Shown: positions 24,771 to 25,878 of the stretch, in pieces
Layout: each line of letters opens with the position of its first letter
Numbering within the stretch: position 1 is the stretch's first letter
NCBI RefSeq assembly: GCF_011045215.1
Contig: NZ_CP049202.1
Source of the DNA: Escherichia coli
Lineage (GTDB): Bacteria; Pseudomonadota; Gammaproteobacteria; Enterobacterales; Enterobacteriaceae
Length of the DNA stretch: 64,000 bases
Strand: one strand, 5' to 3'
The notes under the pieces: model-generated
The model's database searches: none
Seen by the model: only the letters and a program-made list of their open reading frames with translations
What the model was told of the DNA's origin: nothing
Translations under genes and position numbers: made by a program

Positions 24771-25878
24771 ATGACGAAAAAAATCCTCTTATTTTCCCTG
24801 ATTTTTATTTTTAGTATCACCGGCACTTTTTCTCTTATGATAAACGGCAAACAGAAAAAAAGTGCAGATAAAATCATTCCCGCAATCAACGCTAAATATA
24901 ATAATAAATGGCTTACACACAGATTAATAAAAATGGACTATGATAATGGAACGGCTTTATCTGTTATTCAGAAAGCATGGAATAACACCGAATACTTCAT
25001 CCTCTCAGCCAGAAAAAAAATGCCAGTCAGCCACAACCACTCTTAATTTTCTTTACTGCACAAATGATTTGCTTGGCGAAATGTTTCCTTATAAGGAATC
25101 CAATATGGTCAGCCCGGCATATGCCAGTCAGTTCTCTGATTGCGATCTGAATGTCTATCTTCTCATTGACGCAGCAAAAGAATCTGGCAGGCAGATTGAG
25201 ATCATATTCGCCCCCTTCCACGCTTTTATTTCATATATTGATGATAATAATGCAAGAGCATACTGGGAAACAACCGCCAACCATAATAAAGGTTCTGTTG
25301 CGGATTTAAATGATAATCACTGGTATCAAAAAACATTCAATAAATTCTATTATGTTCCTCGTAGTGAAAATTACATAGAATCACTCTACTCTGTACTGAT
25401 TGCAAATAGTGTAGACTCATCACATAAAAAAGAAATATACAACAATCTTAAGCCGGAAATAAAAAAGACACCATTAGCCTATGATCTGTACTACAGCATG
25501 AAAAATGAAATCTCGTCTCAGGATGCCGAACAGATTAATCTTTTGTTAAGAGAAGACATTACCTCATCATATAAACAACTTCTTCTTACCGGATACTTCA
25601 TTAAAAACAACAATACAGAAGCAGCCCAAAAAATCATTGACAACATACGAGCAAAAAACTGTAAATCAGACTGCATTAGGTTTAAGAAAAAAGTGTACTG
25701 GTACTTTTTTCCATCATATCTGATCTCTCAATATGCATCGGAATTTGGCGTCACACTATCCCTTGAAGATATATATTATTATTACGCATTCAATATTATC
25801 ATTATTCTGTTTAGTTCCCTTTTATTTTTGCCTAAAAGCAGAGATAAGAACAAGAAAAGGCGTGAGAACAATAAATAA
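24771..25878 (+). pseudogene. Hypothetical exported/membrane-anchored protein encoded in two overlapping frames (24771..25046 and 24940..25878) joined at an A8 tract; possibly frameshifted or two separate ORFs
   Basis: First frame has a signal peptide (MTKKILLFSLIFIFSITGTF); second frame ends with a hydrophobic anchor and KKRRENNK; A8 homopolymer near 25012..25019 lies in the overlap; AT-rich. Confidence 0.35.

Follow-up and report, generated by a model that had tools for sequence, protein, structure and literature searches.

Two overlapping plus-strand open reading frames (ORFs) meet around a run of eight adenines (A8) in a 64,000-nucleotide stretch of Escherichia coli DNA (assembly GCF_011045215.1, contig NZ_CP049202.1), of which the full length is referred to below as the window. 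The question raised by this locus is whether these frames represent two genes or the two parts of one gene, and, in the latter case, whether the split is due to a sequencing error, gene decay, or a slippage-prone tract that serves phase variation or programmed frameshifting, as the initial annotation had proposed side by side. The ORF list confirmed the coordinates of both frames given there. Similarly, the length of the A8 run stood, but its position, placed at about 25012..25019, had to be moved one base to the right (Table 1). The run by itself is statistically unremarkable, as the ORF consists of 36.6% A and at least one run of at least eight A occurred in 33% of first-order Markov simulations of the ORF (at least three runs of at least seven A in 7%); it is the comparison with homologues that gives the site its meaning.

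Genomic setting

The middle part of a type-F conjugative transfer operon occupies the minus strand of the window at 22.6-29 kb, and all large tra ORFs of the window are full length. Between traC and trbI, the operon contains an insert of 1.57 kb, the GC content of which (about 33-41%) contrasts with that of the flanking tra genes (about 52-62%). The large ORF of this insert is located on the plus strand and is antisense to the tra genes; its 3' end is overlapped by a second ORF (138 amino acids), which converges on it from the minus strand. The Shine-Dalgarno-like segment preceding the start codon of the large ORF is conserved in intact relatives. A scan for promoters and terminators revealed neither a plus-strand promoter-like site 5' of position 24771 nor terminators within the insert. 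A TAATAT sequence at about 24725 was noticed by eye as a candidate -10 box, unsupported otherwise.

Table 1. Coordinates of the split gene, its lesion and the neighbouring features in the window
Feature	Position	Strand	Remarks
trbI	24307..24687	-	followed by traW and traU
Accessory insert	24688..26260	.	two genes, AT-rich; from composition profile, ORF list and annotation of relatives
12-bp direct repeats TTCCCTGATTTT	24732-24743 and 24794-24805	+	both copies intact in the window
Shine-Dalgarno-like AAGGTG	24757..24762	+	8 nt before the start codon (ATG at 24771); seen by direct reading
5' fragment of the broken gene	24771..25046	+	91 aa; codons 1-83 authentic, then eight out-of-frame codons (MPVSHNHS) and a stop
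Downstream ORF, as called mechanically	24940..25878	+	312 aa
W70 codon (TGG)	24978..24980	+	intact in the window; invariant among close homologues (alignment A1)
A8 homopolymer (lesion)	25013..25020	+	one A above the intact A7 allele
3' remainder of the gene, +1 frame	25021..25878	+	codons 84-368 of the intact protein
Partner ORF	25822..26238	-	138 aa, about four hydrophobic segments, intact, tra orientation; mechanical ORF from an ATG at 26301
traC	26261..28906	-	from ORF list and annotation of relatives

The intact form of the gene

The upstream frame is in phase 0 and the downstream frame in phase +1, so that removal of one A (A7) yields a single ORF of 1107 nt encoding 368 amino acids. That a one-base change would fuse both frames had been foreseen in the initial annotation, although for a product of about 365 amino acids. 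Indeed, the repaired protein is exactly identical to a recorded protein (P0088) that occurs on 41 contigs. The insert was found at 94-98% identity in 24 PLSDB plasmids and four complete E. coli genomes, and most of the relatives that carry it are annotated with a single coding sequence of 1107 nt. Close homologues in a large protein database formed nine clusters (78-94% identity), nearly all of 367-369 amino acids, and an exhaustive profile search retrieved 79 more distant representatives, typically of 360-420 amino acids, each of them one stretch spanning the tract position.

Among intact copies, dN/dS amounted to 0.24-0.34 overall, with values of 0.30-0.49 for the part preceding the tract and of 0.20-0.29 for the part following it. 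Furthermore, an AlphaFold2 model based on a 65-sequence alignment (pLDDT 95.2, pTM 0.90; this superseded a model with pLDDT 50 from a shallow alignment of 12 sequences) displayed one compact fold, in which residue 82 lies within the helix formed by residues 63-84. Since all homologues are single across the tract, dN/dS is similar on both sides and the break falls inside one helix, the intact sequence constitutes one gene subject to purifying selection, and this gene is broken in the window.

Origin of the A8 tract and its effect on the gene

In most alleles, the tract position reads AGAGAAAAA (Arg-Glu-Lys, with Glu82 encoded by GAA), which interrupts the adenine run. Only in the lineage of the window (the window/L001 lineage) does it read AGAAAAAAA (Arg-Lys-Lys, with Lys82 encoded by AAA), a G>A substitution having made a run of seven adenines (A7). 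The additional A was absent from all six PLSDB relatives first compared (A7 or A5) and from nine further A7 loci. Over 7.1 kb, five A7 loci (L024, L026, L027, L030 and L032) shared 99.85-99.94% identity with the window; their insert is identical to that of the window except for the extra A, which is the only gap in these 7.1 kb. Because such otherwise identical A7 copies exist, the insertion leading from A7 to A8 appears to be very recent.

Tract lengths of A6, A7 and A8 were all observed in the Lys82 lineage, so that the length variation among related plasmids that the initial annotation had suggested looking for does occur, with A6 being restricted to four loci (L020-L023) that already lack the ribosome-binding site and the start codon. 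The two other A7 runs of the gene (24777-24783 and 24855-24861) were invariant in the sampled copies. A metagenome scan for other tract lengths retrieved five copies, all of the interrupted AGAAAAA type. According to a distance matrix, the window differs at a single position from an A7 plasmid (L024), and a second A8 backbone (L014) is nearest to another A7 locus (L025; 44 differences) and differs at 142 positions from the window. As both A8 backbones have closer A7 relatives, A8 would either have arisen twice or have moved by recombination.

The window allele is best explained, with a probability of about 0.8, as a genuine and recent insertion by replication slippage into an A7 run peculiar to its lineage, inactivating a single conserved accessory gene. 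A Glu82>Lys substitution (GAA>AAA) created the A7 run in one lineage, and replication slippage, as the presumed mechanism, would subsequently have added one A. Translation from the normal start would then stop after 91 codons and yield a membrane-anchored stub devoid of the catalytic and TPR domains, the authentic part of which comprises the N-terminal membrane helix and the first periplasmic helices. The downstream 285 authentic codons, which encode the transglutaminase-like core, the TPR-like repeats (about 199-323) and, at the C-terminus, a membrane helix followed by the basic tail, have neither a signal or anchor of their own nor a convincing ribosome-binding site. Internal re-initiation, either at the ATG at 24940 or at M104 or M112, was considered and rejected, as no Shine-Dalgarno-like sequence precedes these codons and the product would be without its N-terminal anchor. 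The A8 allele is probably functionally null, being truncated at codon 83 out of 368, before the conserved Cys/His core; 'null' could mean 'strongly reduced', as transcriptional slippage on A8 may restore the frame at a low level.

Compared with an intact orthologue, the allele differs by one repeat unit within a mononucleotide run; its intact counterpart is a single selected gene, and A8 recurs in other assemblies, all of which is typical of a slippage pseudogene. As a frameshift, the case is ordinary. It shares with other bacterial pseudogenes caused by slipped-strand mispairing in homopolymers the single-base expansion of a run, the immediate premature stop, the intact near-identical relatives and the presence of other null alleles. 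Nothing essential sets it apart from them, except that here the run itself was newly made by a Glu>Lys substitution and that three lengths of it were seen. The case would illustrate how one such substitution can create a hypermutable run that subsequently kills the gene. It also bears on annotation: the two 'hypothetical proteins' of the source record (91 and 257 amino acids; the former recorded as P0089, with accessions QIF16477.1 and WP_160521696.1) should be replaced by one frameshifted pseudogene.

Recurrent loss of the gene

Several other lesions were found in the same gene. First, a nonsense mutation of W70 (TGG>TAG) gave rise to an independent null allele that is widespread (P0090 class; listed in 68 index blocks) and was also present in one of the five metagenome copies. 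Second, a 62-bp deletion between the 12-bp direct repeats removes the Shine-Dalgarno-like segment, and with it the ribosome-binding site, together with the ATG in L020-L023, all of which have the A6 tract. A restoration of the frame in these four loci by the combination of this deletion and A6 (-63 nt in total) was considered and discarded, as an in-frame TAA precedes the junction and no usable start is left. Third, private homopolymer insertions occur in the L004 type (three records) and in L006. Furthermore, the A8 copy of L014 carries an additional substitution, W184L, which lies 3' of the frameshift and affects a near-invariant residue, and the small partner ORF contains a stop codon in L029 and L031.

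Judged from these alleles, the gene appears to have been inactivated repeatedly, and often irreversibly, in natural plasmids. Of the options raised initially, that of a decaying gene is the one supported, both by the intact single-gene homologues and by the several unrelated null alleles. The repeated loss probably reflects dispensability or cost of the gene and not regulated switching.

Alternative explanations

Phase variation, in which slipped-strand mispairing at the A7/A8 (and A6) tract would turn the gene ON and OFF reversibly, as at contingency loci, is unlikely. It would be in line with the three tract lengths in natural copies of the same allele, with the presence of A8 in two backbone clades that each have closer A7 relatives, as would result from recurrent slippage, and with the predicted location of the product in the envelope, a class typical of phase-variable genes. 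Likewise, the invariance of the other two A7 runs in the same sample is compatible with a preferred switch site, but this restriction of length variation to one site concerns three events and is not significant. Moreover, most alleles and all distant homologues lack the tract, which hence does not belong to the conserved features of the gene; OFF states also arise irreversibly, through the nonsense codon or the 62-bp deletion; A6 is confined to copies already dead through that deletion; and the A8 copy of L014 has a substitution at a near-invariant Trp, as may be expected of a decaying allele.

Classical contingency tracts are longer than 7-8 A, and E. coli is not known to rely on phase switching by simple sequence repeats. 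The contingency loci of Neisseria, Haemophilus and Campylobacter resemble the present locus in having a homopolymer near the 5' end of an envelope-protein gene and a length polymorphism that toggles the frame, whereas the tract described here is short, is not conserved among alleles and is accompanied by irreversible null mutations. The part of the initial proposal concerning slippage-proneness is borne out by the A6, A7 and A8 forms, but that concerning a tract used for switching is not. As the gene has also been lost by unrelated lesions and the tract is lineage-specific, decay is favoured over an evolved switch.

A sequencing or assembly artefact, in which the true tract would be A7 and the extra A a homopolymer miscall, is very unlikely. 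Single-base homopolymer insertions are the commonest long-read errors, the private insertions in two related records (L004 and L006) may be such errors, and A7 copies otherwise identical to the window exist. Yet, A8 was also retrieved in GCA_009820175.1 (L015), a 2.8-kb contig that is 100% identical to the window and may stem from the same isolate, and in the Logan assembly of SRR3213947 (L014), which differs from the window at 142 out of 6275 sites without gaps, two of these sites being located in the insert and 140 in the flanking tra genes. Among the A8 copies, L014 appears clearly independent of the window, L015 perhaps not, and the 142 backbone differences of the former argue against a single error-prone data set behind all A8 assemblies. 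The exact 91-amino-acid product is represented by four NCBI protein accessions on three to four contigs, with an adjacent accession (P0094) corresponding to the downstream piece. Comparison with the closest complete plasmid (CP056356.1) over a block of 11.6 kb (17310-28922) revealed no 1-bp indel other than A8, and the tra genes of the window are all intact. At the assembly level, an error is thus very unlikely, because A8 recurs in other assemblies, one of which has a different backbone, and no other 1-bp indel was found; this largely excludes the sequencing error initially put forward.

Programmed recoding, in which the full-length protein would be produced from A8 by ribosomal frameshifting or transcriptional slippage as an evolved mechanism, is highly improbable. 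The tract contains A_AAA_AAA, a classic slippery heptamer, but a -1 shift at this site enters the third frame, which soon terminates, whereas the shift needed is +1 (or -2). In addition, no stimulatory structure was found, as the 90 nt following the tract fold worse than shuffled sequences (-9.5 kcal/mol versus a shuffle mean of -13.8 kcal/mol; z = +1.63). The programmed frameshifting suggested initially thus fails on both the frame that is reached and the RNA structure downstream.

Regarding transcription, loss of one A from the transcript would restore the frame, and slippage of RNA polymerase on A runs is documented; in certain organisms, even A8 can be productive (Baranov et al. 2005, PMC1088944). 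Transcriptional-slippage recoding sites, such as the A9 of Thermus dnaX, the A9 runs of IS elements and Shigella mxiE (Baranov et al. 2005, PMC1088944), are alike in that an A run lies at the junction of overlapping frames that are fused by a slip of one nucleotide in the mRNA. However, those sites are conserved as split and usually have at least 9 nt, whereas the split described here is a rare, derived allele of an in-frame gene, its homologues being in-frame single ORFs and its tract lineage-specific. In many bacterial genomes, slippage-prone A/T runs are evidently selected against once they reach about 9 nt (PMC1088944). Low-level leakiness through transcriptional slippage is possible, but nothing points to programming. 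Finally, two naturally separate genes that overlap at the A run by chance can practically be dismissed, even if the source record and gene callers list two 'hypothetical proteins', as the homologues, the mid-helix junction in a high-confidence predicted fold and the purifying selection on the fused frame all oppose it, and as conserved coding sequence is read out of frame in the last eight codons of the 91-amino-acid ORF and in the first 27 of the 312-amino-acid ORF.

The encoded protein and its partner

The intact protein starts with MTKK, followed by an N-terminal hydrophobic helix (about residues 4-26), and ends with a second hydrophobic helix (about residues 334-356 by hydropathy, 331-350 in the model) and a strongly basic tail (KSRDKNKKRRENNK). 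According to the positive-inside rule, residues 29-330 or thereabouts would face the periplasm. The signal-bearing N-terminus reported initially was thus recovered, but in view of the C-terminal hydrophobic helix and its basic tail, the product seems to be anchored in the membrane at both ends and not simply exported.

Across 65 sequences, conservation of the family is centred on SDCDLN...APGHAFI...YWETT, with Y107, P148 and H150 being invariant and D123, C124, D125, E166 and T168 being at least 90% conserved. The corresponding blocks (D123-C124-D125, P148-x-H150 and E166-x-T168) all reside in the 3' remainder of the split gene. The predicted model contains a transglutaminase-like alpha/beta core fold, and C-terminal to it helical repeats (residues 199-323). 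A Foldseek search against AFDB retrieved enterobacterial 'transglutaminase-like domain-containing' proteins (TM 0.76-0.88), followed by SirB1-N-terminal-domain and TPR proteins. Similarly, the family profile matched consensus TPR proteins (E-value 5e-11, profile positions about 248-308).

Curated resources returned little: neither the repaired protein nor the small ORF matched Pfam (Transglut_core and Transglut_core2 included), NCBIfam or PADLOC; a Pfam scan of the 65 family members gave only weak TPR_19 and TPR_11 matches; a sequence search of the PDB with a shallow profile gave only a spurious membrane-helix match; and in literature searches, neither a gene located between traC and trbI nor this protein family was found to be described. 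On the basis of the model, the protein may be regarded as a putative membrane-anchored, periplasm-facing Cys-His enzyme with a TPR arm, not filed in a curated family. Known comparators are the SirB1-N-terminal-domain/TPR proteins, the periplasmic LapG-type proteases and the menin fold. In comparison with known transglutaminase-like/TPR proteins, the protein has about 10% identity to solved structures, carries a membrane helix at both ends, and is paired with a small polytopic membrane ORF within conjugative-transfer operons.

The large gene was convergent with such a small polytopic membrane ORF (115-150 amino acids, with a shared PAPF...IAP motif) in all contexts examined; in the window, both overlap by 57 nt. 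This cassette occurs between traC and trbI in the window and in the E. coli and Salmonella copies, after traU in L011, beside traH in L033, between traT and traD in L035, and, in L012, in an element of the chromosome that also carries a shufflon, a MobA/MobL relaxase and TraD. Where the cassette lies in a type-F operon (four contexts), the large gene runs against the tra genes and the small ORF along with them. As this orientation puts tra transcription antisense through the large gene, which it must cross, one may speculate that both are expressed reciprocally.

The wider lead provided by this locus is an uncharacterised transglutaminase-like/TPR membrane protein, predicted to be well folded and selectively maintained, together with its small membrane partner. 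Its recurrence in type-F conjugation operons of Enterobacteriaceae, combined with its repeated loss, suggests a conditionally useful, possibly costly function tied to conjugation. Natural ON (A7) and OFF (A8, W70* and 62-bp deletion) alleles of the cassette gene are available. It is conceivable, although quite unlikely, that the cassette is a conjugation-linked module for conflict or envelope remodelling, comprising a periplasm-facing Cys-His enzyme whose TPR arm would bind the substrate, and the activity of which is toggled or shed through the hypermutable A run and null mutations, with a benefit depending on host or mating. If so, A7 and A8 would constitute a functional ON/OFF polymorphism and not simple decay.

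The artA gene of plasmid F is likewise an ORF located inside the tra operon and oriented against it. The cassette resembles artA as an accessory ORF transcribed against the long tra transcript, but has no sequence relationship with it, involves a much larger gene, consists of two genes and occupies variable positions. The window further contains a plus-strand ORF of 104 amino acids (17040..17354), which, given that its size and place are those expected for artA, is a candidate for this gene.

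Two-gene cassette and probable decay of its genes

The disrupted large gene and the convergent small ORF, encoding a polytopic membrane protein, form a two-gene cassette that was found repeatedly, both within type-F T4SS operons and within conjugative elements. Its insertion point varies: the cassette occupies the traC-trbI junction, follows traU, adjoins traH, separates traT from traD, or lies within an ICE-like region. In the type-F operon copies, the large gene is oriented antisense to tra. Family-model and literature searches retrieved neither a matching family model nor a paper describing the cassette.

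L014, the A8 copy on a different backbone, carries a W184L replacement of a near-invariant tryptophan 3' of the frameshift (equivalent to window position 25322), a single observation that is consistent with relaxed constraint following inactivation of the large gene. Replacement of the W70 codon TGG by the stop codon TAG, located on the Glu82 (AGAGAAAAA) allele of the large gene, is a widespread null allele that is independent of the others; it has entries in 68 index blocks, and one of the five metagenome copies carries it. In a further null allele, 62 bp were lost between 12-bp direct repeats (TTCCCTGATTTT), thereby removing the ribosome-binding site and the start codon; the A-run of these copies was shortened as well, to A6. 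The small partner ORF also decays in some lineages, since an internal stop codon interrupts this 138-aa ORF (equivalent to window positions 25822-26238) in L029 and L031, despite an intact (A7) large gene in both loci. In addition, a single-base polymorphism or indel occurs at window position 26243, in the 22-nt gap after traC and just upstream of the annotated start of the small ORF (26238), the base being absent in L003, L005, and L006 and a C in L001, L002, and L004. In records with this deletion (L003 and L005), the small ORF tends to go unannotated, although its coding sequence is intact.

Coordinates of the cassette copies, null alleles, and other features
Feature	Locus	Coordinates	Strand	Description
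Cassette	Window	24688-26260
Cassette	L011	696-2172
Cassette	L033	4815-6324
Cassette	L035	6001-7488
Cassette	L012	5001-6514
W70 TGG>TAG null allele	L016-L019 and L038	Equivalent to window 24978-24980
62-bp deletion null allele	L020-L023	Equivalent to window 24732-24793 and 25013-25020
Hypothetical ORF in second AT-rich dip	Window	21880-22332	-	150 aa
Hypothetical ORF in second AT-rich dip	Window	22325-22675	-	116 aa
AS-traG antisense RNA	Window	13311-13396	+	Rfam match at gathering threshold
FinP with traJ 5' UTR	Window	37002-37110		Rfam match at gathering threshold
sok antitoxin RNA	Window	41100-41271	-	Rfam match at gathering threshold
Plus-strand ORF	Window	17040-17354	+	104 aa; between trbA and traQ

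Other features of the F-like plasmid

Elsewhere in the window, 8-nt A/T homopolymers were restricted to two plus-strand T8 runs, at 58059-58066 and 59008-59015. The latter falls within an intact minus-strand ORF of 1043 aa (58119-61250), which thus contains a sense-strand A8 run without a frameshift. A second AT-rich dip within the tra operon (22300-22750; GC about 0.35), with traU and trbC on either side, is probably another accessory insert. The 104-aa ORF is another ORF oriented against the tra genes within the operon; its size and position are those of artA of the F plasmid, and it is a candidate artA. AS-traG, FinP with the traJ 5' UTR, and sok are regulatory RNAs expected for an F-like plasmid. 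Finally, two leading-region segments of roughly 0.55-0.6 kb (40066-40672 and 45461-46017) repeat each other; when the window was compared with CP056356.1, the closest complete plasmid, they cross-matched at about 86-94%, and CP056356.1 likewise carries several copies of this repeat.
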